Origin: Candidatus Sigynarchaeum calidifontis
GTDB lineage: Archaea; Asgardarchaeota; Lokiarchaeia; Sigyniarchaeales; Sigyniarchaeaceae
Direction of reading: 5' to 3'
Assembly (NCBI GenBank): GCA_030587475.2
Contig: JAUQYZ020000230.1
Span: 25,317 to 89,316 of the forward strand
Length of the DNA stretch: 64,000 nt
Made by a program: the position numbers and the translations under genes. Below the pieces are notes generated by a model that ran no database searches, was not told the DNA's origin, and worked only from the letters and a program-made list of their open reading frames with translations. This document shows positions 21,054-33,470 of the stretch, piece after piece; the first letter of the stretch is position 1, and every line of letters begins with the position of its first letter.

Positions 21054-22040
21054 TCATCCTCCGATTTTCACGACGATCTTGACGAAGTCCCGCTTCGATG
21101 GATCCATGTATCGCTCGAAGGCTTCCTGGATGGCTTCCAGCTTGACAACGCCCGAGATGATGGCTGCGGGATTCACCCGCTTCGCCGCGACGAGAGCGAT
21201 CGCGTCCTCGATGTCCTGCCTGTCGTGAGATAGCGAGCCACGTATGGCGATCTCCTTTGAACTGAGCGTGAAAATTGGAAACGAGATCTTGCCTTTCTGG
21301 ACAGATTCAACAATGATCTCGCCGCCATGCTTTACTATGTCCATGGCCAGAATCACCCCGTCCTCGATCCCGGAACATTCAAACACGGCCTCCGGTTCCC
21401 CGTGTTCCTTGAAGAACCGGCGTGCCATGGCAGCGCTTGGCCGGATGACCTCGGTCGCGCCGAGTTCCCTTGCCTTGGCTTGCTGGAACGCCCCCGGCTC
21501 CATCACTAGAATGTAATTGCCGCGTCGCGGGAATCCTGCCGCTCGCAAGCACGACAGGGTGGTCAGCCCGATATTGCCGGCGCCCATGACGGCGATGTTG
21601 TTTTCGCTCTGCAATCGGGCCCATTTTAGTGCCCGGACGGCAACGGCAAATGATTCGATCATCGTGGCATCCCGGGGCATGATGGATGCGGGGATGTGGA
21701 ACAAGAAGTCCTTCGGAACCACGACATACTCGGCGAACCCTCCGTTCCTGAAGATGCCCAGGCCCCGCAATTCGTTGGACGTGTCAAGCTGCACGTTGAT
21801 ACCCGCGACACTGTCGCCCAGCTTGAATCCCGACCCCTCCATACCTGGCCCGAGTCGTGCCACCTCGCCAGCGAACTCGTGCCCCATGATGATGGGCGTC
21901 TGGTAAATCTTTGTCGTCCAGTTCTTCACGTCCGTGCCGCATATGGCGCAATAATGCACTTTCACGAGTACTTCGCCCGTATTTGGCTCGGGCGTCGGGT
22001 AATTGTCGTGGATCTTGATCGTGCGGATGTCCTCGAACAC
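21054..22040 (-). CDS. Zn-dependent medium-chain dehydrogenase (threonine/sorbitol DH-like)
   Basis: ICGTD, GHE and GAGNIG. Lacks the four-Cys structural zinc lobe. Confidence 0.88.
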   Translation of the reverse strand: MFEDIRTIKIHDNYPTPEPNTGEVLVKVHYCAICGTDVKNWTTKIYQTPIIMGHEFAGEVARLGPGMEGSGFKLGDSVAGINVQLDTSNELRGLGIFRNGGFAEYVVVPKDFLFHIPASIMPRDATMIESFAVAVRALKWARLQSENNIAVMGAGNIGLTTLSCLRAAGFPRRGNYILVMEPGAFQQAKARELGATEVIRPSAAMARRFFKEHGEPEAVFECSGIEDGVILAMDIVKHGGEIIVESVQKGKISFPIFTLSSKEIAIRGSLSHDRQDIEDAIALVAAKRVNPAAIISGVVKLEAIQEAFERYMDPSKRDFVKIVVKIGG

Positions 22041-22070: not shown

Positions 22071-22550
22071 CTATGCCTTATCGTGATGGTGTTGGTCGTC
22101 ATGTCTATGCTCCTTCTCATCGCCCGCGTCGCCGCGCGGGAACACGTACAAAGGCACGAGCTCGCAAAATAAAATGCCCTTTATGGCCTTGACTTGCTCG
22201 ACGAATGACAAGACGCTCGTGACTTCACCCCGCAATGCGATTACTTCAGAACAGTTCTCCTCGGAAACATGGACATGCATGGTCGAGTAGATATGGATGC
22301 CGGCGTTGTGTTCGATCTCGGTGAGCTCATCGAGGAGGCCTCTCTGGTGATGGTTGAACGCGATGACGAGGAACCCGTCCTCGAATGTATCTGGCCGGAG
22401 CGTCGCCTCCTTCTTCAAGAACTCGCGCAAGGCATCCCGCACCACCTCGGACCGCTTGGCACCTTTTTCCTTGCAATACTTCTCCAGCTCCGCTAAGAAA
22501 TCCTTCGGGATCGTGATCGTGACGCGATCCATGTCCTTATCTGAGTACAT
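22071..22550 (-). CDS. nikR: Nickel-responsive transcriptional regulator NikR
   Basis: RHH domain (RVTITIP...RSEVVRDALR), EH...STMHVHV...CSEVI nickel site, His-rich tail. Confidence 0.92.
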   Translation of the reverse strand: MYSDKDMDRVTITIPKDFLAELEKYCKEKGAKRSEVVRDALREFLKKEATLRPDTFEDGFLVIAFNHHQRGLLDELTEIEHNAGIHIYSTMHVHVSEENCSEVIALRGEVTSVLSFVEQVKAIKGILFCELVPLYVFPRGDAGDEKEHRHDDQHHHDKA

Positions 22551-22992
22551 CGGAATGACCTCGGATGACGGTCATTTCTTCCCGTGGTAACATATATAAT
22601 TGCACGGCGGTTGGATCACGGATATCACGGGATCGCAGCTCCGGGAAAAACGGACGACGGGGACGCCGGTGCCCTTCGACGTCCCCGCGTCTCTCAAGGT
22701 AGCCAAATGCCTTGCCTAAAGCTGGTGCCGTGAGGTGTCTTGTCGAGCCTTTTAGGTGAAATGTAAACGTTCCAAGGCCATGCTAACATTCAAGCAAGAT
22801 CTATTTAACAATTTCAGTCATTGGCTTCATGTGTCAAGTTAACCGGGGATTCTGCGAAATACTCGACTTTGTAGAGAGATCTTAAGGCATCCGACAAAAA
22901 TGAAGTTCAACCAATTTAACCGCGAAATCGTTCTCCACGGGTTATTTTTTCTGCTTCCCGTTGCGAATCGTTGTCATCGCAATGGCATTAAA

Positions 22993-23020
22993 GTAATACT
23001 TTATTCCAAAGAAGTATGAG
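22993..23020. promoter_or_regulatory. Candidate NikR operator 1
   Basis: GTAATA-N16-TATGAG overlapping the ATG at 23016. Confidence 0.55.
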
Positions 23021-23645
23021 CAACGACTTCGCAAGCAAAAGCACCTTGTATGTTAACGGTGAAATCGATACATCGATCATTTCTGAAAATGACCAAAATA
23101 CCAATCGAAAATCCAAGGATATCGCCTTGATCGCGATCTTCTCTGCAATCCTTGGCATATTAGCAATTTTTGCATGGATCGTGCCGTTCAGGCACATCAC
23201 GATGGAATTTCTCATCAACGTGGTCGTTATCTTGTTATTAAAGATTGCCCGACGAAAGGGCACCTTGTTTTTCACCGGCCTGATCACGGGATTCATCGAT
23301 TTTTTCGCGGGATTGTCTGGCCCTGGCGGGTTTCTCGCCCCGATTGTCTACGGCTTTAAACTGGGCTTTTTAGAATCGGCAAATCACTATTATAAAAAAC
23401 CGCGCCATAGGAACGCGATGCTCATCGTGGTGAATTCAATTGGATATTTTCTCACGGGAACTTTGATCTGGATAATGTACACGGCACTATTCATTCCTCT
23501 TGGGACCGAGTCCACGCAAAAGATGTGGTTCGTGTTGACCCTCGCGGGTGCGTTGATTTGCATCCCCGCTACCGTCTTCGCCATAAATATATATGATAGG
23601 TGGTTCAAGCCGCACGCTCGGATCCTCATGCAAACGAAAACGTGA
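23016..23645 (+). CDS. Membrane protein, ECF S-component-like
   Basis: About six TMs; DIALIAIFSA and RKGTLFFTGLITG resemble ECF substrate-binding components. Confidence 0.6.
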   Translation: MSNDFASKSTLYVNGEIDTSIISENDQNTNRKSKDIALIAIFSAILGILAIFAWIVPFRHITMEFLINVVVILLLKIARRKGTLFFTGLITGFIDFFAGLSGPGGFLAPIVYGFKLGFLESANHYYKKPRHRNAMLIVVNSIGYFLTGTLIWIMYTALFIPLGTESTQKMWFVLTLAGALICIPATVFAINIYDRWFKPHARILMQTKT

Positions 23646-23662
23646 AGTGGTCCACGAAGGGA

Positions 23663-23690
23663 ATAACACTTTTTTTATTCTGGATATGAC
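23663..23690. promoter_or_regulatory. Candidate NikR operator 2
   Basis: ATAACA-N16-TATGAC directly adjacent to a TTTAAA TATA-like box upstream of the chelatase operon. Confidence 0.55.
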
Positions 23691-23744
23691 TTTAAAGGTT
23701 GATTTACTAACTGGCCGTGAACGAAGATCATCGAGACGACACGC

Positions 23745-25754
23745 GTGACGCACTATAAAACCTTCCCGTTCAGCGCCATCGTTGGGCAAAACGACATGAA
23801 GCTCGCGCTTATCTTGAATGCTATCAACCCGAAGATCGGCGGGGTTTTAATAAAGGGTACCAAGGGTACTGCAAAATCTACGGCGGTACGAGCACTTGCC
23901 GACTTGCTACCCGAGATCCGGGTCATCAAAGACTGCCCGTTCAATTGCAATCCTGAAAGCATCAAGGAATCTTGTCATACCTGCCAACACAAGCTAGAAG
24001 CTGGGGAAATAACTGAAAAGGATATAGAAACGAGAAAGATGCGCGTTATTAACCTCCCCATCAATGCGACAGAGGATCGCGTCGTTGGTACCATAAACAT
24101 CAAGGAAGCATTGTCGACAGGACTCAAAGCGCTTGATCCAGGAATCCTTGCTGATGCGAACCGGAATATTCTATATATCGACGAGGTTAACTTGCTTTCG
24201 GATAACGTGGCCGATATATTGCTCGATTCCGCTGCGATGGGTATCAACATCATAGAACGGGAAGGGATATCTCTCCATCATCCGTCAAACTTCATCTTGA
24301 TAGGGACCATGAATCCCGAGGAGGGAAACTTGCGCCCGCAATTGCTCGACAGGTTCGGACTCGGTGTAGAAGCGGAGATTATAACTAATATCCCAGACCG
24401 GGTCGAGATCGTGCGTCGTTCCGAGGAATACCATGCGGATCCCTCCACCTTCTACGAAAAATACGATGCAAAACAGAACGCCCTTCGCAAGCAGATCGTT
24501 GATGCACGTGCTTTATTACCCGAAGTACGCATTCCAGACGAGCTTCTAGAAAAAATTGCATCGGTTTGCGTGGCATTCGAGGTCGACGGACACCGGGCCG
24601 ACATAACGATAAATGCAGCGGCGAAAACGCTAGCCGCTTTCAACGGGCGACGCGAGGTCTCGATCGAGGACGTGAAACATGCCACGCGGCTAGCATTGAT
24701 GCACAGATTACGTCGCCTTCCATTCGAGGATAAGAAGCTAGACGTCCATAAAATCGACGAGTTACTGGATAAACCCGAGCATTCTGGGGGGCCAGACCCG
24801 TCGGACGAGGGAAATCCCAAAATCGATAAAAGCGATAAAGAAGCGGGAAAACGCCAGGTCGTTAACCAGCGGGAAACGACCTTCAACATCGGCGTTGGCA
24901 TGAATGCAGATAAGGTGATCCATTTGCATAAAACCCGTGAATTGATGAATGCATCGGGGCGCATCGTCCCGCACCCGACGAACGACAAGCGTGGTGCCCA
25001 GTCCGGGATCGAGAAGCCTCGACGTAGCATCAACATGCCAACATCGAGCGATGTCGCTATCTTGCCCACGATCAACGAGGCCGTGTTGGATCCAGAGAAC
25101 CAGGCGTCTGTAAAAGCTGGCGGTTCCATTAATGTTGGCGAGAACCACATTCACGTGAAGAAAAGATCGGGAAAATCGAGCTATGCCATTATTTTTTGCG
25201 TCGACGCGTCGGGATCCATGGGCGCGGAGAACCGGATGGAAGCTGTTAAGGGTGCGATCTTCACCATTCTCCAAGGAAGTTACGTCCGGCGGGATAAGGT
25301 TTCCCTCGTCGTGTTCCGGCAAGACAAGGCCGAAGTCGTATTGCCACCGACCCGGAGCATCGATCTCGCGTTCAAAGTTTTGAAGGAAATTCCAACGGGC
25401 GGTACGACCCCCTTGGCTGCGGGTTTGCTCAAGGCAATCGATGTCGCAGCCGAGGAGAAACGCAAAGCTACCGGCTATATCCCCTTGATCATTATCATCA
25501 CCGATGCCCGGGCGAACGTGTATGTTCACGACGCAATTGATGATGCTAAAAAAGTCGCGAAATACATTGCGGAGCAAGGCGTGGAGACAATCGTGATCGA
25601 CACGGAATCACCAAGCTTGAAACTTGGTCTTGCGAGAGAAATCGCCGATGCAGCGAATGCCACGTATTATCCCATAGACCAGTTTGGAAAAGACGAGATC
25701 CGGAACGTGCTCCACGCGGAAGGCTTGCTCGAACCGATGACAAGCGAATCCTAA
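23745..25754 (+). CDS. Class I chelatase AAA+ subunit with vWA domain (ChlI/ChlD-type)
   Basis: FPFSAIVGQ, Walker [44 protein letters not shown] and GGTTPL. Confidence 0.93.
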
Positions 25755-25770
25755 TTGTTCGTGATTTTTC

Positions 25771-28700
25771 ATGCCTTCCAATCTCCGAGTGAACAAGAAA
25801 CCATCCGTCGTCATAGTTTCCTCGATGGTATGCACCCGGAACTTGATCGACGCAGCTGCCACCGTTCGAGAGCAGCTGGGAAGCGTGTTTGATATTTCCG
25901 TTTTTTTCGTGAACGATGTCGAAACAGGAGTCGTTTCTAAATCAACATTCGTTACTGCCATTCATGATGCCAATGTCTTGATGATCGACATTCGCGGGAA
26001 CAATCTCGCCGCGGAACTCATCGTTGAAACCTATGAGGCAATGGAACGCGATGAACCAGCTTTGTTCAAGGAAAAAAGCATCGTTTCGCTTGTCGGGGGC
26101 AATGAGGAAATCAGGCGCTTGACCAAGCTCGGGCCTTTTATGGCCCGATCTATCCCATCGAAAAAGAAAAGCGAGTTGGGGATGGACGGTATTCCAGATC
26201 TTTCGGATCTCGTCAAGAAAGGCATACGGATCGGGCAAATGATGAAGTCCGCGGGAAAATACTTGCCGGTCGGTTCGCTCAAGCACGCGCGCAACTGGAT
26301 GCTGCTCATGGATTATTGGGCTTATGGCCACGCGGGCGTTCGCCAGAACCTCGAGAACATGTTCAAGCTGGTCCTCCGAGACTATCTTGGCCACGAATAC
26401 CTCGAGGTGCCCGAGCCTCAGAAATTCCCTCCTATCGGTATATACGACCCTCGTGACAATCGATATTATGCATCCACCGAGGAGTACCATCGCGCCCACG
26501 TTCCCGACCCCACCAAGCAGACCGTCGGTTTCTTCTTTTATGGGGGTATTTATTTCGAACAGACGCTGCCCGTGCTGGAATCATTCATGGAAAAGCTATC
26601 AGATTACAATCTTATTCCCGTATTTTCGGAATCTTTGGAAAATATCCACGCGCACGAGAAGTTTTTCTTTAAAGATGGCGTGCCGATCGTCAACGCTGTC
26701 ATCAACCTTCAATATTTCCAGATAAATGGTGGTCCATTCGGAGGTGACAATGCGCGCACGCTTGCATTGTATCGGCGGGAAAACGTTCCACAATTTAATC
26801 CGGTAATTTTATTTGACTCGAAAAGAGAAGAATACGAAGCCTCCACGAAGGGTACTATCCCGATCAACCAGGTCATCGCTGTAGTGATGCCCGAGCTCGA
26901 CGGCCGGATCGAGATGCTCGCGGCCGGAACAATGCAAGACAAGGGGATTCCTGATGGAGAACAGCTTCCCGTTTTGGAAGTCGGTCCTATCGAGGAAAAC
27001 ATCACCATCATCGCGAAGCGGGTCAGAAAATGGCTTGACCTCCGTGCAAAGTCAAATAGTGAAAAGAAAATTGCCATAATCCTCTATGATTATCCTCCTG
27101 GTGAAGCAAAGCTCGCGAGTGCTAGTTATTTGGATGTTCCAAGTTCCATCAAACGATTGCTAGCTTTGCTCGCACGCGAGGGATTTATTACTTTCCCCTT
27201 GCCTGATGGAAAGGAAATTCAAGACATTCTTATGGAATCAGGAGCCATCAACTCCCCGAAGCACGTAGACGTGAAGGATTACAAGGGCATTTCCATCGAT
27301 GCCCAACAATATAGCGAGCTCCTTGCATCGTTACCAAGCGAGACCCGCCAACGTGTCATCGACGCATGGGGCCCTCCTCCTGGTTCCATCATGGTCAAGG
27401 ATGGCCGCATTCGTCTTCCCATCTTGCAATTTGGTAATGTCTATATTTGCTTGCAACCAGCCCGCAGCGAGGTGACTGGGGATCCGGTCGAATATCATGA
27501 CAAAGATAAACCTCCCCATCACCAGTATGTCGCGTTGTATCGATATTTGGATGAGGTCGTCGATGTCGACGCCATCATCCATTTCGGTACCCATGGAACT
27601 CTTGAATTCTTGCCCGGGAAGGAATGCCTCGGCAACGTGAGGGATGATAACATTGCACTGCTCGGGCGGATCCCGAACATCTACATCTATCACGTGGGTA
27701 ACACGAGCGAGTCAGCCATCGCGAAGCGACGTTCGAACGCGGTCATCATCAACCACGCTGGTCCAGCGTTCGAATCCTATAACTTGAATCCAGACTTGCT
27801 CCAACTAGAAGACCTGGTGAACGAATGGCAAGACGCGCGCTCATCGAACGGAAAACAAGATGAAGGATTGCTCGATAACATCCGAGAGATCGCTCGAAGA
27901 ATAGGCATCGAATACTCATCGATGGCGGAACTGGAGGCGTTGATCCCCCGGTACAAGCTCGCGGCAGTTCCGATCGGCCTCCACGTGCTCGGGGAAACGT
28001 TCACGGTCGGAGAACGTAAAAAATTAATCACGCGTGCACTTCTAGACTCGGTCGAAGCCCCAACCGCGATAGACGCCGTGATCAACAGGTTTGGTAAGAA
28101 TGAGCATGCCGTGTTGCACGAGATCGAGCCCGTGGTCGAATCGATCATCACCAACAACATGGCTCCACCAGGTAGCAAAGGATATACAGAGATGGCGAAA
28201 AAACTGGGAATTGGGGAAAAGGATCTGGAGCAACTAGCAAGATGGGTCGCAGATCTGTCGGCACGCATGGAAGATTCCTACGAGGAACGTAATATCATCC
28301 GGGCCCTAGAAGGCGGGTATATCGAACCTGGATTCGGTGGAGACCCCATCCGTACCCCCTCGATATTCCCGACGGGGCGAAACTCGTTTGGTTTTGATCC
28401 ACGCTTGATCCCGAGTTCCATCGCTTTTAAGCGCGGCGAGGAAATCGCCAATCGCCTTCTACAGCAGTATAAAGATGAGCATGGCACGTGGCCAGAGACG
28501 ACAAGCGTTGTCCTCTGGGGTTTCGAGACCATGAAAACTGGTGGTGAAACCGTCGGGCAGATATTTAGTTATATGGGCGTTAAACCCGTCAAGAAGAAGT
28601 CAGTATGGACGACCGAGCTCGAAATCATCCCGCTCGCCGAGCTTGGTCACCCGAGAATCAACGTGGTCGTGACAATCTGTGGTATTTTCCGAGATACGTT

Positions 28701-29547
28701 CCCGTATATCCTTGATCTGATAAACCGGGCCATCGAGCTGGTCTCGAACCTGGACGAACCTGTCGACCAAAACTACGTGAAAAAAGCCACGCTTGATCTC
28801 GAAGCCCGGCACGTGCAACATCCGATTGCACGCATCTTTGGTCCATCGCCAAGTAGGTACAACACGAACATCACGGAGATCATCAATGCCGGCGCCTGGA
28901 AAGAGGAAGGAGAACTAGCGACCAATTACATCGAAACGATGGGATTCGCCTACTTGAAAAATCAAGAGGTCGAGGCCGCAAAGGACGCGTTCGCAGCCCA
29001 GGTGACCCGCATCGAGCTGTTATCACAAGTTCGCGATAGCAACGAATTCCACGTGACCGACTTGGATCATTATTACGAGTTCACCGGTGGCTTGGCACGG
29101 GCCCGCGAGCATCTCGCGGGCTCTAGGGCAAGCGTCTTTATCGCAGACACGTCACGGAAGCGGATCACCGTCGAAACCATTGACAAGAGCATTAACGAAG
29201 GTGCGGTGACCAGGACACTCAATCCCACGTGGATCCACGGGATGCTCAAGCACAAGCACAGCGGCGGGCAGAAGATTGCTGAACGCGTCGAGAATTTTCT
29301 TGGTATGGCTGCCACGACCCATGAGGTTAGCGAATGGATCTGGGACAAGACATACGCGCAGTACATCGAGAACGAGGAGATACGAGCCGCGTTGATCGAG
29401 AACAACCGGTTCGCCATGATGGACGTCGTGAAGACCATACTGCAAGCCAGCCAGCGAGGTTACTGGAACGCGAGCGACGAGCAGATCGACACGTTGAAGA
29501 AATTATATCTGGAAATGGAGAGTTGGCTTGAAATCACGTATCAATAG
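25771..29547 (+). CDS. Class I chelatase large subunit (ChlH/BchH/CobN family)
   Basis: MPELDG, YPPG, PPHHQY, HFGTHGTLEFLPGK, AKRR, GLHVLG, PTGRN, DHYYEFTGG and LNPTWIHGM. Confidence 0.93.
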   Translation: MPSNLRVNKKPSVVIVSSMVCTRNLIDAAATVREQLGSVFDISVFFVNDVETGVVSKSTFVTAIHDANVLMIDIRGNNLAAELIVETYEAMERDEPALFKEKSIVSLVGGNEEIRRLTKLGPFMARSIPSKKKSELGMDGIPDLSDLVKKGIRIGQMMKSAGKYLPVGSLKHARNWMLLMDYWAYGHAGVRQNLENMFKLVLRDYLGHEYLEVPEPQKFPPIGIYDPRDNRYYASTEEYHRAHVPDPTKQTVGFFFYGGIYFEQTLPVLESFMEKLSDYNLIPVFSESLENIHAHEKFFFKDGVPIVNAVINLQYFQINGGPFGGDNARTLALYRRENVPQFNPVILFDSKREEYEASTKGTIPINQVIAVVMPELDGRIEMLAAGTMQDKGIPDGEQLPVLEVGPIEENITIIAKRVRKWLDLRAKSNSEKKIAIILYDYPPGEAKLASASYLDVPSSIKRLLALLAREGFITFPLPDGKEIQDILMESGAINSPKHVDVKDYKGISIDAQQYSELLASLPSETRQRVIDAWGPPPGSIMVKDGRIRLPILQFGNVYICLQPARSEVTGDPVEYHDKDKPPHHQYVALYRYLDEVVDVDAIIHFGTHGTLEFLPGKECLGNVRDDNIALLGRIPNIYIYHVGNTSESAIAKRRSNAVIINHAGPAFESYNLNPDLLQLEDLVNEWQDARSSNGKQDEGLLDNIREIARRIGIEYSSMAELEALIPRYKLAAVPIGLHVLGETFTVGERKKLITRALLDSVEAPTAIDAVINRFGKNEHAVLHEIEPVVESIITNNMAPPGSKGYTEMAKKLGIGEKDLEQLARWVADLSARMEDSYEERNIIRALEGGYIEPGFGGDPIRTPSIFPTGRNSFGFDPRLIPSSIAFKRGEEIANRLLQQYKDEHGTWPETTSVVLWGFETMKTGGETVGQIFSYMGVKPVKKKSVWTTELEIIPLAELGHPRINVVVTICGIFRDTFPYILDLINRAIELVSNLDEPVDQNYVKKATLDLEARHVQHPIARIFGPSPSRYNTNITEIINAGAWKEEGELATNYIETMGFAYLKNQEVEAAKDAFAAQVTRIELLSQVRDSNEFHVTDLDHYYEFTGGLARAREHLAGSRASVFIADTSRKRITVETIDKSINEGAVTRTLNPTWIHGMLKHKHSGGQKIAERVENFLGMAATTHEVSEWIWDKTYAQYIENEEIRAALIENNRFAMMDVVKTILQASQRGYWNASDEQIDTLKKLYLEMESWLEITYQ

Positions 29548-29688
29548 TATACTTGTACGATTGTGCGATTTTTTCCACGAACATCCGAGCTATTTCTTTA
29601 ATTCGATAATCATGGCCAAACGGCTTGATGATAAAGAAGAAAAATTGAAAAAATAGACACTCAACCCGGTTTCCATCGATATAGCAAA

Positions 29689-30057
29689 TTATCCGATGAT
29701 GACTTGGGCTTTTTTTGCCTTACTTGGAATCTTGACCAACATCGCCGACACGATGACGATTATTGCCCAGACACCAACGATAGCAAATAGCATCGATGTT
29801 CCGAGCGTTGCCATCTCATAGAACATGACCGCGGCATCCGCTGGATCATTCATTGCAGTCAAGAACGGAAAGAAGGGAACAATTTCTTGGTGGGCAACAT
29901 GTTCTAGCGCAAGCATGATGACCCCGCCCCAGAGTAACAGGCTGAGAACCCCCAACTTGTATTTATCTATCACTGATTGTTTTCCCACGCGTCGGAGGGT
30001 AATATCGATAGGTATCAAGACGATGGCTAATGCCATCGGAACAAGAAAGCAGGCCAT
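29689..30057 (-). CDS. Small membrane protein (MACFLVP N-terminus), candidate metal-uptake component
   Basis: Three TMs; YKL..L..LLWGG..ML..EH motif shared with the upstream gene. Confidence 0.8.
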   Translation of the reverse strand: MACFLVPMALAIVLIPIDITLRRVGKQSVIDKYKLGVLSLLLWGGVIMLALEHVAHQEIVPFFPFLTAMNDPADAAVMFYEMATLGTSMLFAIVGVWAIIVIVSAMLVKIPSKAKKAQVIIG

Positions 30058-30063
30058 AGTTGT

Positions 30064-30372
30064 TCAGCTCCGTACATGTTGCATTTTTACTTTGGATACG
30101 AGGACTGCCAATTCCCAAATTGCAAAAACGGGGATGAGCATCGAGATACCGAGGATAAATCCATCCGCAATCAGACCATCTGTCGTGAATTCAATAAACG
30201 GGCTGGCGAAATCATATCCCCAAATATGATCGACAAGTATCATCACTGATGCACCCCATAGCATAACCGCTAACCAATCGAGCTTATACGTCTTCGGATT
30301 TGGTAAAGCAAGGTACACGGCTGTGACTGCCAAGGCAGCAATCAAGGTCGTTATGAGCCACACGTTTTTCAT
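30064..30372 (-). CDS. Small membrane protein, paralog of the downstream gene
   Basis: Three TMs; YKL..L..MLWGA..M..VDH motif; 6-bp gap to the next gene. Confidence 0.8.
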   Translation of the reverse strand: MKNVWLITTLIAALAVTAVYLALPNPKTYKLDWLAVMLWGASVMILVDHIWGYDFASPFIEFTTDGLIADGFILGISMLIPVFAIWELAVLVSKVKMQHVRS

Positions 30373-30384
30373 CTCGGAGAAGGG

Positions 30385-30416
30385 GAGTATTACGTCCCGT
30401 GAAAATCGTAATACTC
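30385..30416. promoter_or_regulatory. Candidate NikR operator 3 (perfect palindrome)
   Basis: GAGTATTACG-N12-CGTAATACTC, equivalent to GTATTA-N16-TAATAC. Lies between a TATA-like box (about 30441-30453) and the ATG at 30372. Confidence 0.8.
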
Positions 30417-31097
30417 ACGGTCTTCCAAGTTCCGTTCCAATTTAAAATTATAGATCCTCTGCCCAGTTCTCTTGCCTTCGATCGATCTCACGAATACCCG
30501 GATCAAGATGCTGGCGCCGTACATCAACACGATCACGGGAGACATGATAACTGCCTATTGAATCCGGGAACGTTTTCATTTTATGAACCCATTTTCGCTC
30601 TGGATCCGCGCACGATAAATTCGGTTAGAGATTGTCTGTAAGCGATTGCAAAAACCGGGAAAATGGTCATTCAAACCACTTATGATCTTCAGATCATCGA
30701 CGCGACCTATGACCGTTCTTCATTTTTTAACACGAATTCCCATCTCGTTGTATATAGAATTACACGTGACATTTTGAAGAATCCAAAATTGTTCATAAGC
30801 ATAAAACTTGTTGAAAAACATTATTCCAATTATCACGAAAAATATTATGGCCGGGTTAATGCTATCACGTTCATTTTCACCTATGAACATCTTTTTTTCT
30901 TGAGAGTGCACAAATTGAATGGCATCCCGCATAAACGAAGGTTTTACTTCCCCGTGTCGAAGATTATCGAAGAAAACTAATTCGGTAATCAAAATGGATA
31001 TATGGACTCCCTCCTTTTGTGGACAAAAACCACTTGCGGTCGGAATCATTCTTGCACGGCACATAGCAATCCTTATATTTGAAGCCGGGGGCTGGAA

Positions 31098-31643
31098 ATG
31101 CAAGAAACAAGACGGGAACTCGCGAAAGAATCCTATCTTTCCGAGGTTGCTTCGATCATCATCAATATTTTTGTCGGGCTCTGTTTAACGTTGTTGATCT
31201 TGCCGCGACAGAGTTTCGGGCAGATCGTGCTCATGGTACCCGCCATGATTTCGACGAGGGGAAACATTTCTGGATCTTTTTCTGCGCGCACGGCTCGCGA
31301 TCTGGTCATTGGTTCCTTCAGGCAAAACCATCACGAGAATATCTTATCCACGGTCGTGCTTACCATTGTCACAAGCGAGGTGATCGGTGGCTTGAGCTTG
31401 TGCATCGCCCTTTTGCTCAAACCAGGCTCTCTTTTACCCGTGCATTGTTTTTTATTGCTTCCACTCATTACCATGCTTCTAACCGTAGTGGTATCCATCC
31501 CGATTTCCACGGGCTTGAACACCATCGCTTTCAAGAAGGGGTTGAACCCGAGTAACGTGGTCCCACCAATCATGACCAGCGTGGACGACATTCTCGTGGT
31601 CGTGAACATGTTCATCGCTCTCGTAATATTGGGGGTGCCTTGA
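31098..31643 (+). CDS. MgtE-like integral membrane domain protein
   Basis: VPAMISTRGNISG and GLNPSNVVPPIMTSVDD. Confidence 0.85.
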   Translation: MQETRRELAKESYLSEVASIIINIFVGLCLTLLILPRQSFGQIVLMVPAMISTRGNISGSFSARTARDLVIGSFRQNHHENILSTVVLTIVTSEVIGGLSLCIALLLKPGSLLPVHCFLLLPLITMLLTVVVSIPISTGLNTIAFKKGLNPSNVVPPIMTSVDDILVVVNMFIALVILGVP

Positions 31644-32197
31644 TGCTGTCCTATTTTAAAAAGATCGTCCGAGAATCGAGCGGCGTGCTGATCGCTTGCA
31701 CGGTCATCACGATGGTGTGCGGGATTGCTCTTTCCGAGAGCGATGAATTGCTCTCTGCTATCCCTTTTCTCGTCTTGATCATGCCCGCCCAGAATGACGT
31801 CGTGGGTGACATGTGCCAGGTGCTCGTGGGCAGGCTGGCTTCGCATCTCTATATTGGGCTCGTTCCAGCACGGCTGTCGTTCACGCCTCGCGTCCGATAC
31901 GATTTCCAGTCTCTTTTCGTGGCATTGTTGTTAAGCGTATCGACCTTGCTCGCGGTGAACGTGATCGTTGCCACGATTTCCGGGATCGAGTTCGGTAACT
32001 TTTATAAAATCATCTTCGTCGTCTTCACCGCTGCCACCTTGTTATTTTCCATCATGTTCATCGTGCTCTTCACCGGTGCTATTTATATCTTCAAGCATAA
32101 CAAGGACCCGAACAATTTTTTAATCCCGATCACGACTTCATTGATCGACACGCTTTCTCCCATCTTCGTAGTATTGCTCGCGAGTATCGTCTTGTGA
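31640..32197 (+). CDS. MgtE-like integral membrane domain protein
   Basis: PAQNDVVGD and KDPNNFLIPITTSLID; 4-bp overlap with the previous gene. Confidence 0.85.
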   Translation: MMLSYFKKIVRESSGVLIACTVITMVCGIALSESDELLSAIPFLVLIMPAQNDVVGDMCQVLVGRLASHLYIGLVPARLSFTPRVRYDFQSLFVALLLSVSTLLAVNVIVATISGIEFGNFYKIIFVVFTAATLLFSIMFIVLFTGAIYIFKHNKDPNNFLIPITTSLIDTLSPIFVVLLASIVL

Positions 32198-32225
32198 AAC
32201 ATGCGGGCGTGGAGGCACACGAGAA

Positions 32226-33470
32226 ATGTCCAAATTAAAGAAAAAATTCAAACCAGCCCCGATATCCCTCAAAGAAATATTGCACGAAATGAAGACGAGC
32301 GTCGACGTCATGTTCGACCTTGCCTTTAGTGCCATCCTTTTCCAGAGCAAGGAAATCACGGAAGAGGCTGTAAATATCGACGATCGCGTCCACGAGCTAA
32401 CTGACCTGCTTGGCTACCAAGTCCTTCAAGCCAAGATAGGCCATTTTTCCGAATCGCGCAAGCTGGAGCCCGTCATCACGCTCGGCTATGCCATTGACAA
32501 GATATCCGAGGCACTTTCCGACATCGCGAAAGTCGTGCGCTTGAATGGCCACCTCGCGCAATTTTTCCAGCTTTGCTGGAAGGCTGATCCTGAACCCATC
32601 ATCAAGGTTGCCGTGTCCAGTGAGACCGCTTTCTGTGGCAAGAAATGGGACGACATCCCGTTCAAGGCGGATTACGGCGTGGATGTCATTGCCATCTACC
32701 ATGAGAAAAAATGGATTTTCGATGAAAAAGCGATCATCAATAAGGGAGACATCCTCATTGTTTCGGGGGAACTTCCTGCACTCGCCGAATTCAAGAAGAT
32801 CTGCAAGAGCGAAGAACCCATTTCCTTCGACTTGGAACGCAAGCAACCGATCGACTTGTTCGATCCCAACGACGAAAAAACGATGGCAGTCGTTAAGCGC
32901 TTGAAGGAAAATTACGTGAGAATCACTGATATGTCGGAAACGATAGTTGACCTCGCTTTCGCGTCATTATTTTTTGGCAATCTCGAGATTGCCGAGGATG
33001 TAATAGATCAAGAACATTTCATAGATAACTTGATCGTTGATTTGGAGCGAGACATACTCACGCTTGCAAAAATGATTCCCGTGCCGGAGCGCCTGCTTGG
33101 ACTCATGCGCATCGTGTTCTCGTGCGAGCTGATCTCCGACGCGGCTTCAAGCATCGCCGAAAATCTCCTCAAGGGATTTGAGCCCCACGAGGTGATCGTC
33201 GCAGCGTTTAGCGAGGCCTGGGATGTCGCCGTTCGGGAGGTCTTGGCGCCCGGTTCATTCCTCAAAGGAAAGACCGTCGCGGAGGTACACGTGCCAAAGC
33301 ATTCCAAGGGTTTTCATATCATCGCCATCAAGCGAGACAACGACTGGATCTACGACATCAAGATGGATTTCAAACTCCGCGCAGGAGACATCGTGATCGG
33401 CATCGGTCCCAAGGAACAGATCAATTTCTGGCGGACGCAAGTCAATCCAAATGCCGATGTGGATGATTGA
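32226..33470 (+). CDS. PhoU/TrkA-C (RCK-C) duplicated-domain protein
   Basis: Two repeats of a PhoU-like bundle (DLAFSA...EKIS/ELISD) plus TrkA-C (IIAIKR...GDIVIG). Confidence 0.85.
   Translation: MSKLKKKFKPAPISLKEILHEMKTSVDVMFDLAFSAILFQSKEITEEAVNIDDRVHELTDLLGYQVLQAKIGHFSESRKLEPVITLGYAIDKISEALSDIAKVVRLNGHLAQFFQLCWKADPEPIIKVAVSSETAFCGKKWDDIPFKADYGVDVIAIYHEKKWIFDEKAIINKGDILIVSGELPALAEFKKICKSEEPISFDLERKQPIDLFDPNDEKTMAVVKRLKENYVRITDMSETIVDLAFASLFFGNLEIAEDVIDQEHFIDNLIVDLERDILTLAKMIPVPERLLGLMRIVFSCELISDAASSIAENLLKGFEPHEVIVAAFSEAWDVAVREVLAPGSFLKGKTVAEVHVPKHSKGFHIIAIKRDNDWIYDIKMDFKLRAGDIVIGIGPKEQINFWRTQVNPNADVDD

Follow-up and report, generated by a model that had tools for sequence, protein, structure and literature searches.

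Which genes answer to the nickel sensor NikR in an archaeon that makes no tetrapyrrole macrocycle of its own, and how might they supply it with nickel? The question is raised by a locus at positions 22,071 to 30,416 of a 64,000-nucleotide stretch of DNA from the Asgard archaeon Candidatus Sigynarchaeum calidifontis (the window), where nikR lies beside a class I chelatase operon and a pair of unnamed small membrane genes, m99 and m122. The assembly measures 4.99 Mb, has 54% G+C and is 89% complete; the window lies on its contig C205. An earlier note on this DNA, made from the sequence alone, had proposed a nickel regulon with three operator boxes. The answer developed here is a nickel-starvation regulon that would combine a new Ni2+ permease with an importer and (de)chelatase for an imported metal-macrocycle. 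Taken as a whole, we give this statement somewhat less than an even chance; control of both units by NikR is its more probable part. The features are as follows, in window coordinates.

22071-22550, minus strand: nikR, encoding a nickel sensor with RHH and NikR_C domains and a C-terminal tail rich in His
22993-23020: box 1, GTAATAC-N14-GTATGAG, directly after a TATA-like ATTAAA (22987-22992) and overlapping the S209 start codon
23016-23645, plus strand: S209 (209 aa), a six-helix membrane protein with a predicted fold like that of energy-coupling factor (ECF) S components and an invariant GH(I/P)T motif
23663-23690: box 2 as given in the earlier note; of it only ATAACAC (23663-23669) is conserved, a heptamer closely followed by a T-rich TATA-like box
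23745-25754, plus strand: ChlID (669 aa), a ChlI/ChlD fusion of AAA+ motor and VWA/MIDAS domain
25771-29547, plus strand: large subunit of a ChlH/BchH-like class I chelatase (1258 residues; Pfam CobN-Mg_chel)
29689-30057, minus strand: m122, a protein with three transmembrane helices, an invariant N-terminal M-A-C and an E-H-x-x-H-x-E motif
30064-30363, minus strand: m99, a paralogue of m122 with an invariant LWG...MILVDH; likely start at GTG 30363 (MWLITT...)
30385-30416: box 3, GAGTATTACG-N12-CGTAATACTC, with the core GTATTAC-N14-GTAATAC, upstream of m99

The layout drawn in the earlier note, with nikR, an S-like gene, a chlI/D-chlH/cobN operon and a small membrane pair, was confirmed throughout: nikR is divergent from S209-ChlID-ChlH, and m122 and m99 lie beyond ChlH in convergent orientation. 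For m99 the open reading frame (ORF) list starts at an upstream ATG at 30372; all relatives begin with MWLITT, which corresponds to the GTG at 30363. The sensor matched Pfam NikR_C (E 9.5e-21) and RHH_1 (2.4e-7) and scored 90.2 bits against NCBIfam NF002815, exceeding the cut-off. The curated cut-offs used in this work were 83 bits for NF002815, 779 for TIGR02442, 829 for TIGR02025 and 822 for TIGR02257. In the pattern H-x10-H-x-H-x5-C all four high-affinity nickel ligands align column for column with those of Helicobacter pylori NikR, which we take to be numbered H88, H99, H101 and C107. Both domains of the family, RHH and NikR_C, are thus accompanied by the three-His/one-Cys residues of the square-planar high-affinity site.

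The type-2 NikR signal of delta-proteobacteria is GTGTTAC-N13/14-GTAACAC, and sites with reversed half-sites have also been described (PMC545781). Half-site orientation matters little, because GTAnTAC is itself near-palindromic. With this delta-proteobacterial consensus as the yardstick, the whole 4.99-Mb genome was scored with GTAWTAC-N14-GTAWTAC. Box 3 had 0 mismatches and was the sole such site genome-wide; it is a perfect palindrome with 10-bp arms, GAGTATTACG and CGTAATACTC. Each of its half-sites is one transition away from the published type-2 consensus (0 mismatches to GTRTTAC-N14-GTAAYAC). A TATA-like box (30440-30453, minus strand) precedes the site by 23 nt, and the m99 start follows 21 nt after it. 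Box 1 had 2 mismatches, a quality reached by 52 sites genome-wide, so that about 0.005 would be expected in the 470-nt intergenic region; its geometry is that of a leaderless promoter. From archaeal promoter architecture, a protein bound at box 3 or box 1 would be expected to block initiation. The sequences and positions that the earlier note had given for the three boxes (22993, 23663 and 30387) all read exactly as written. As operators, box 3 stands as a perfect and unique type-2 site and box 1 as one with 2 mismatches that is conserved in three species, but box 2, with 4 mismatches, does not have the type-2 form. The E. coli NikR box chosen for comparison in that note has to be abandoned: GTATGA-N16-TCATAC had zero matches in the genome, and the operators fit the type-2 signal instead. 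Only the second half of box 1 resembles GTATGA, and it does so in direct orientation. A genome scan with the degenerate consensus of the earlier note returned 10 matches, 4 of them at the locus, but this test is circular. Further candidate NikR sites in the genome with at most 2 mismatches lay within coding sequence, in front of a tRNA or next to ArsR-type genes, and none was convincing. Elsewhere in the same genome, on a 4.4-kb contig (C232:1400-1500), four copies of GTATTACGG occur within about 90 nt near an SRP54/FtsY-like gene; this heptamer is identical to a NikR half-site, and the spacing is different.

The divergent arrangement of nikR and S209-ChlID-ChlH is kept in three species: that of the window, a second genome of the genus (G001) and a contig of a third species (L132). 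In all three the S209 promoter reads TATA-like box, GTA(A/T)(T/C)AC, 14 nt, GTATG(start), with 2 mismatches each and with unalignable flanks. Before ChlID, G001 carries GTCATAC-N14-ATAACAC and L132 ATCATAC-N14-ATAATAC, with 3 mismatches each and ending at a TATA-like box. The window genome keeps only the proximal heptamer of this RTCATAC-N14-ATAAYAC site. The register of the site in the two relatives is a different one, and therefore box 2 as originally drawn is not the conserved register. Across the Asgard order, sites with at most 2 mismatches were found 60-92 nt upstream of ChlID in 5 of 7 lineages (Fisher, combined p ~8e-4, among partly related loci), where ChlID and ChlH themselves had no conserved neighbours besides each other.

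More distant loci were collected by scanning metagenomes with an alignment of Asgard ChlH proteins, which yielded 80 loci, 66 of them with upstream sequence; the same scan with a single ChlH protein as the query gave no confirmed relative. An operator with at most 1 mismatch lay within 170 nt of the first operon gene in 24 of the 66 loci. These upstream regions held 25 sites in 11.9 kb, compared with 15 in 889 kb, a 124-fold enrichment, and the operators were spread over 4 of 6 ChlH clusters formed at 60% identity. In a Bathyarchaeia-like lineage, with a ChlH that shares 74% identity with a Bathyarchaeia protein and 37-38% with the window ChlH, the locus comprises nikR, m99 divergent from m122, a 205-aa protein, a 176-aa membrane protein, ChlH and ChlID. 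Of its three perfect operators, one precedes nikR, one lies in the gap that separates m99 from m122, and the third stands about 45 nt in front of the 176-aa gene. Another lineage has nikR, a 1-mismatch operator in a 61-nt gap, ChlID and ChlH. Going by gene order and operators, the same four parts are assembled under NikR in two phyla. We consider it very probable that NikR controls the chelatase family at large, and fairly probable that it controls the S209/chelatase unit in this genome. Both units therefore keep their place in the local regulon of the earlier note, by conserved adjacency, by operators in orthologous and distant loci and by the recurrence of the gene set in another phylum.

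Two side observations concern these loci. Between m122 and the S209 homologue of the Bathyarchaeia-like loci lies a 205-213-aa protein (L172:5679-6296, L178:3640-4281) that belongs to no Pfam family and is absent from the Asgard locus; it is possibly a further part of the nickel system. In the spacer between nikR and S209, where no site for autoregulation was seen in the nikR promoter in this genus, a block of about 110 nt (22645-22757, minus strand) is kept in the three species; elsewhere the spacer cannot be aligned. Read on the minus strand, the block folds into helices, 7 pairs of which are maintained through two-sided changes, and ends in a terminal GC hairpin followed by TTTTT. An Rfam scan of the spacer gave no match; the block is a candidate small RNA located ahead of the nikR promoter.

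The arrangement resembles the type-2 NikR regulons of delta-proteobacteria (nikMNQO or nikKMLQO; PMC545781) in the sensor family and its four nickel ligands, in the 27-28-bp operator with two half-sites in either orientation, and in having putative uptake genes beside nikR. It differs in that the targets are not known nickel transporters but an unnamed two-protein family and a class I chelatase operon, and in that the archaeal operator sits between the TATA box and the start.

The two-protein family was surveyed by a profile scan of one genome per species. The family was found at 62 loci, and the paralogues were adjacent, in either order, in 61 of them, that is, wherever both were detected. 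The loci belong to Thermoplasmatota, Aenigmatarchaeota, Hadarchaeales, Omnitrophota, Patescibacteria, WOR-3, Bacteroidota and others. A nikR homologue lay within 6 kb of the pair in 31 of the 62 loci, mostly divergent and directly adjacent. Exact type-2 half-sites numbered 27 in the 9.2 kb upstream of the pair, compared with 79 in the other 480 kb (17.8-fold enrichment, again among partly related loci), and at least one preceded the pair in 25 of 59 loci. The Asgard relative G005 has the pair and nikMNQO in divergent orientation, and GTGATAC-N14-GTATTAC stands before m99. These findings make control of the pair by NikR highly likely.

The nature of the pair is less plain. Neither m99 nor m122 had a Pfam or NCBIfam match at E 0.01 or better, their Atlas clusters are all unnamed ('hypothetical'), and compared with NikM/CbiM, NiCoT, HupE/UreJ and CbtAB they showed no family membership by sequence. 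In an alignment of 28 sequences m122 has the invariant residues M1, A2, C3, P7, E52, H53, H56 and E58, and in m99 D45-H46 within LWG...MILVDH is invariant. The AlphaFold2 model of m122 (predicted local distance difference test, pLDDT, 87.6) consists of 3 long helices; when it was compared by VIA-align with 48,161 chains, the best Z was 7.1, to generic helical bundles, and nothing informative was found. A prediction of the m99-m122 complex from both family alignments scored 0.08, which counts neither for nor against an interaction. At two Omnitrophota loci the operon order is nikR, an outer-membrane barrel (OprB- or MetA-like), m99 and m122, which, read as gene order, is the layout of an uptake route. 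The genome encodes [NiFe] hydrogenases and acetyl-CoA synthase (ACS), and no CbiM/NikM was found in it. On this evidence the pair is probably a nickel importer, at somewhat better than an even chance.

The second unit centres on the chelatase. The large subunit matched Pfam CobN-Mg_chel over its full length (1-1090 of 1090; E 8.8e-292) and is the single CobN/ChlH homologue of the whole genome. Its scores were 800.4 bits for BchH (TIGR02025) and 595.9 bits for CobN (TIGR02257), both below the respective cut-offs, and among PDB entries 505 bits for ChlH, 408 for CobN and 359 for HmuS; its placement rests on these profile and PDB scores. With only 4 Cys in 1258 residues, it is not cysteine-rich. 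ChlID scored 730 bits against TIGR02442, below the cut-off, and 368 bits against the ChlI structure 8osf. Its motifs are intact, with GTKGTAKS as a MoxR-like P-loop, ILYIDEVN as Walker B and DASGS as MIDAS. The orthologues examined have the identical Walker B and slightly varied forms of the other two motifs. The two proteins together thus have the CobN/ChlH large subunit and the AAA_5, AAA_lid_2 and VWA domains of a class I chelatase. A second ChlI/ChlD-like fusion elsewhere in the genome (contig C22:25814-27856) combines the canonical P-loop GTGKS with the MIDAS motif DASAS and has no ChlH partner nearby.

That no chlorophyll or cobalamin genes lie near the locus had been remarked earlier, and the statement can be extended to the genome as a whole. 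No cbi genes were found in it by tblastn, and neither HemB nor TP_methylase (PF00590) was found in five related genomes (G000, G001, G002, G003 and G012), one of them 100% complete. The same TP_methylase search matched in 14 of 14 control genomes. The family includes corrin and sirohaem methylases and also diphthine synthase; in the five genomes diphthine synthase may be lacking too. From the absence of cbi genes, HemB and TP_methylase it follows that the chelatase has no role in de novo synthesis of chlorophyll, cobalamin or F430. Within the order, HemB was found in 0 of 41 genomes, yet ChlID-ChlH is present in 17 of the 41, and the chelatase is therefore not biosynthetic in the usual sense. 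With both curated scores below their cut-offs and no cob/bch pathway or tetrapyrrole synthesis, the large subunit does not behave as a bona fide CobN or BchH, in keeping with the reading in the earlier note.

The best solved relatives are those of magnesium chelatase (ChlH/BchH, ChlI and ChlD; PDB 4zhj, 8osf, 2x31; 505 and 368 bits), which has the same three modules of large subunit, AAA+ motor and VWA/MIDAS domain. Unlike that enzyme, the system described here has ChlI and ChlD fused (669 aa) and a BchH score below the cut-off, its host lacks chlorophyll and tetrapyrrole synthesis, and its operon appears to be linked to NikR and is paired with an S-component-like membrane protein. The cobaltochelatases CobNST and CobN-ChlID (PDB 7c6o, 9uk9) belong to the same superfamily, and the fused ChlID best matches the 'putative cobaltochelatase' TIGR02442; however, the window proteins stay below the cut-offs (596 vs 822 and 730 vs 779 bits), and since the genome has no cob/cbi genes, no hydrogenobyrinate diamide would be available.

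S209, the first gene of the chelatase unit, belongs to no Pfam or NCBIfam family and has only 3 representatives among 1.84 billion proteins. Structural matches from the Atlas and Foldseek were to the S components MptD, RibU, ThiT and PanT with template modelling (TM) scores of 0.5-0.75 (Atlas 0.62-0.75), and these suggest an S-component-like fold, in keeping with the ECF S-like assignment made in the earlier note. The protein is homologous to the 176-aa membrane protein of the Bathyarchaeia-like lineage (hhalign 95.4%, E 1.8e-8, 159 columns), which precedes ChlH in 13 loci; the invariant GH(I/P)T motif is common to both families. The genome has one EcfAA'T module, on contig C49, with one EcfT and tandem ABC ATPases. 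The predicted six-helix fold and the separate module would be as in group II ECF systems with S components such as RibU, ThiT, PanT and BioY. Unlike the ECF proteins NikM and CbiM, S209 is without an MHIPDG-type N-terminus and without a sequence family match; it has its own invariant GH(I/P)T and is always beside the chelatase.

These parts can be joined in a mechanism. With sufficient nickel, Ni-NikR would sit on the operators between TATA box and start of both units and repress them. When nickel is scarce, NikR would be released, and both the m99/m122 permease, for free Ni2+, and the S209/chelatase unit would be made. The two small proteins would form a two-subunit inner-membrane nickel permease with six helices in total, whose metal site may consist of the intramembrane D-H and E-H-x-x-H-x-E motifs and the N-terminal Met-Ala-Cys. 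S209 would use the single EcfAA'T module of the genome to import a metal-macrocycle, which would then be processed by the ChlH-like protein in the cytoplasm, with the ChlI/ChlD AAA+ motor as its drive. In the likeliest reaction, the chelatase would use ATP to take the nickel out of an imported nickel tetrapyrrole, for example F430 or a nickel porphyrin. We infer that Ni-NikR represses the units, which way transport and chelatase run, and what the substrate is. Import of a nickel-macrocycle with removal of its metal is favoured because the host makes no macrocycle and the unit would be a starvation response.

For a superfamily member that works in reverse there is a precedent in HmuS from Bacteroidota (PDB 9d26; Nath et al. 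2025), a membrane-bound, NADH-dependent haem de-chelatase of the hmuYRSTUV operon with a Met-rich insertion, Met-79, His-254 and His-538 as hallmarks (PMC12583661). The likeness lies in a CobN/ChlH-superfamily protein that would salvage metal from an imported metallo-tetrapyrrole and not serve biosynthesis. Unlike HmuS, the window ChlH has, by eye, no obvious signal-like N-terminus, keeps an AAA+/VWA motor and is linked to NikR, not to an iron regulator. HmuS is its most distant solved homologue in overall similarity (359 bits), and no hmu-type neighbours were seen at the loci examined. By analogy, then, the chelatase may strip nickel from an imported macrocycle, a proposal that we hold tentatively and rate as rather unlikely to be right in this form. 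Slightly more doubtful still is the widest version, in which anaerobic archaea (Asgard and Bathyarchaeia-like) would, under nickel starvation, combine S-component import of environmental nickel tetrapyrroles (F430, its derivatives or nickel porphyrins), a ChlH chelatase run in reverse by its AAA+ motor and a two-protein Ni2+ permease that extends from archaea to Omnitrophota and Patescibacteria (candidate phyla radiation, CPR).

Several observations weigh against the proposed regulon and its mechanism. The operator of S209 is imperfect in this genome, with 2 mismatches and a second half-site that overlaps the start codon, and box 2 is at chance level (4 mismatches, about 6% chance per 100 nt). 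Of the relatives in the order that carry the chelatase, most have neither an adjacent nikR nor S209, and one genus (g11) is without a NikR site before ChlID. The relatedness of loci in the enrichment counts for pair and chelatase inflates the p-values. The S-component assignment comes from a moderate model (pLDDT 62.7), for which the leading Foldseek matches are almost all S components, at E of at least 3e-3. The direction of the chelatase reaction is pure inference; to our knowledge, ChlH/ChlID-type machines insert metal and HmuS is the sole proven dechelatase. For the pair, two Methanomassiliicoccales loci adjoin cobalamin synthesis genes, and cobalt is therefore a possible substrate; from this gene context, some lineages may use the family for cobalt in addition to nickel. 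At these two loci (Methanomassiliicoccales-type, L038:2993-11271 and L045:3023-9500) the pair has cbiQ/cbiO-like genes on one side and a complete operon for cobalamin ring synthesis on the other.

The direction of the chelatase is also where the main alternative parts from the mechanism above. S209 could import a metal-free or differently metallated macrocycle into which ChlH/ChlID inserts nickel, the unit being induced to compete for scarce metal. All characterised machines of ChlH/CobN with AAA+/VWA partners do insert metal, the large subunit is closest to ChlH (505 bits) and BchH (800 bits), the ATPase and MIDAS motifs are intact, and the NikR link is equally strong under either direction. 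However, turning on a consumer of nickel under nickel shortage would be unusual, and the order makes no macrocycle of its own. We know of no nickel-tetrapyrrole-dependent enzyme such as methyl-coenzyme M reductase (MCR) in these Asgard archaea, and the known insertion of nickel into tetrapyrroles, by CfbA, needs no ATP. A forward nickel chelatase is unlikely on this balance. Tetrapyrroles might also play no part at all, if the ChlH-like protein and its AAA+ motor served as a nickel chaperone or insertase for hydrogenase and carbon monoxide dehydrogenase (CODH)/ACS, with S209 as an anchor or as an importer of a nickel chelate. Control by NikR would fit such a role, as would a genome with [NiFe] hydrogenases and ACS and no tetrapyrrole pathway, and PMC12583661 describes a cation-pair site as conserved across the CobN/ChlH/HmuS superfamily. 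The large subunit has nevertheless retained the match to the porphyrin-binding CobN-Mg_chel fold over its full length (1-1090 of 1090), and no co-location with hyp, cooC or acsF genes was found at the loci examined. We know of no precedent for a chaperone of this kind and regard it as the least probable of the readings considered.

It is also conceivable that NikR controls only m99/m122 here and that S209-ChlID-ChlH is a nickel-unrelated neighbour of nikR that salvages a corrinoid or another macrocycle. Box 3 is, after all, the sole strong site, box 2 is at chance, and the start codon takes up 3 of the 7 positions of the second half-site of box 1; moreover, with no cbi genes, the organisms need imported corrinoid for ACS. 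Yet nikR, S209 and the chelatase also stand side by side in G001 (81% complete), in which the family profile of the pair found no match, and in the L132 contig, whose short remainder past ChlH shows no pair. Three species retain box 1 within flanks that cannot be aligned, and perfect operators precede homologous operons in other phyla. Control of the pair alone is thus quite unlikely, and the reading in which NikR controls both units is preferred.

The flanks of the locus contain further genes. On the nikR strand, a zinc-type alcohol dehydrogenase (ADH) gene (ADH_N, ADH_zinc_N; 21054-22040, minus strand) begins 30 nt past nikR. The genome of the same genus likewise has an ADH-like ORF downstream on that strand, with a 406-aa ORF intervening; co-transcription with nikR is possible in the window genome only. 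Just past box 3, at 31098-33470 on the plus strand, lies a further metal-transport unit beside the nickel locus, made up of an MgtE-type divalent-cation channel split into parts of 181 and 184 aa and, after it, a PhoU/TrkA_C protein of 414 aa; no NikR site was seen in front of this unit.

NikR, its operator type and class I chelatases are already known. In the literature searched, which did not cover the 2006 survey of NikR regulons, no description was found of NikR control of the archaeal ChlH/ChlID branch, and neither the S209-type partner family nor the m99/m122 family was described. Many archaeal CobN/ChlH/HmuS homologues have been flagged as being of openly unexplained function (PMC12583661). 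With a large archaeal branch placed under a nickel sensor in organisms that do not make tetrapyrroles, the question becomes directly experimental, and the salvage reading, if true, would give a function to this large orphan branch. Two unnamed families gain testable jobs, one as a candidate two-subunit nickel permease that is widespread in uncultured archaea and bacteria, the other as an S-component-like protein linked to the chelatase. The findings bear on the trace-metal supply of syntrophic Asgard archaea in sulfidic sediments, where nickel is needed for hydrogenases and acetyl-CoA synthase, and point to undescribed routes of nickel acquisition across archaea.

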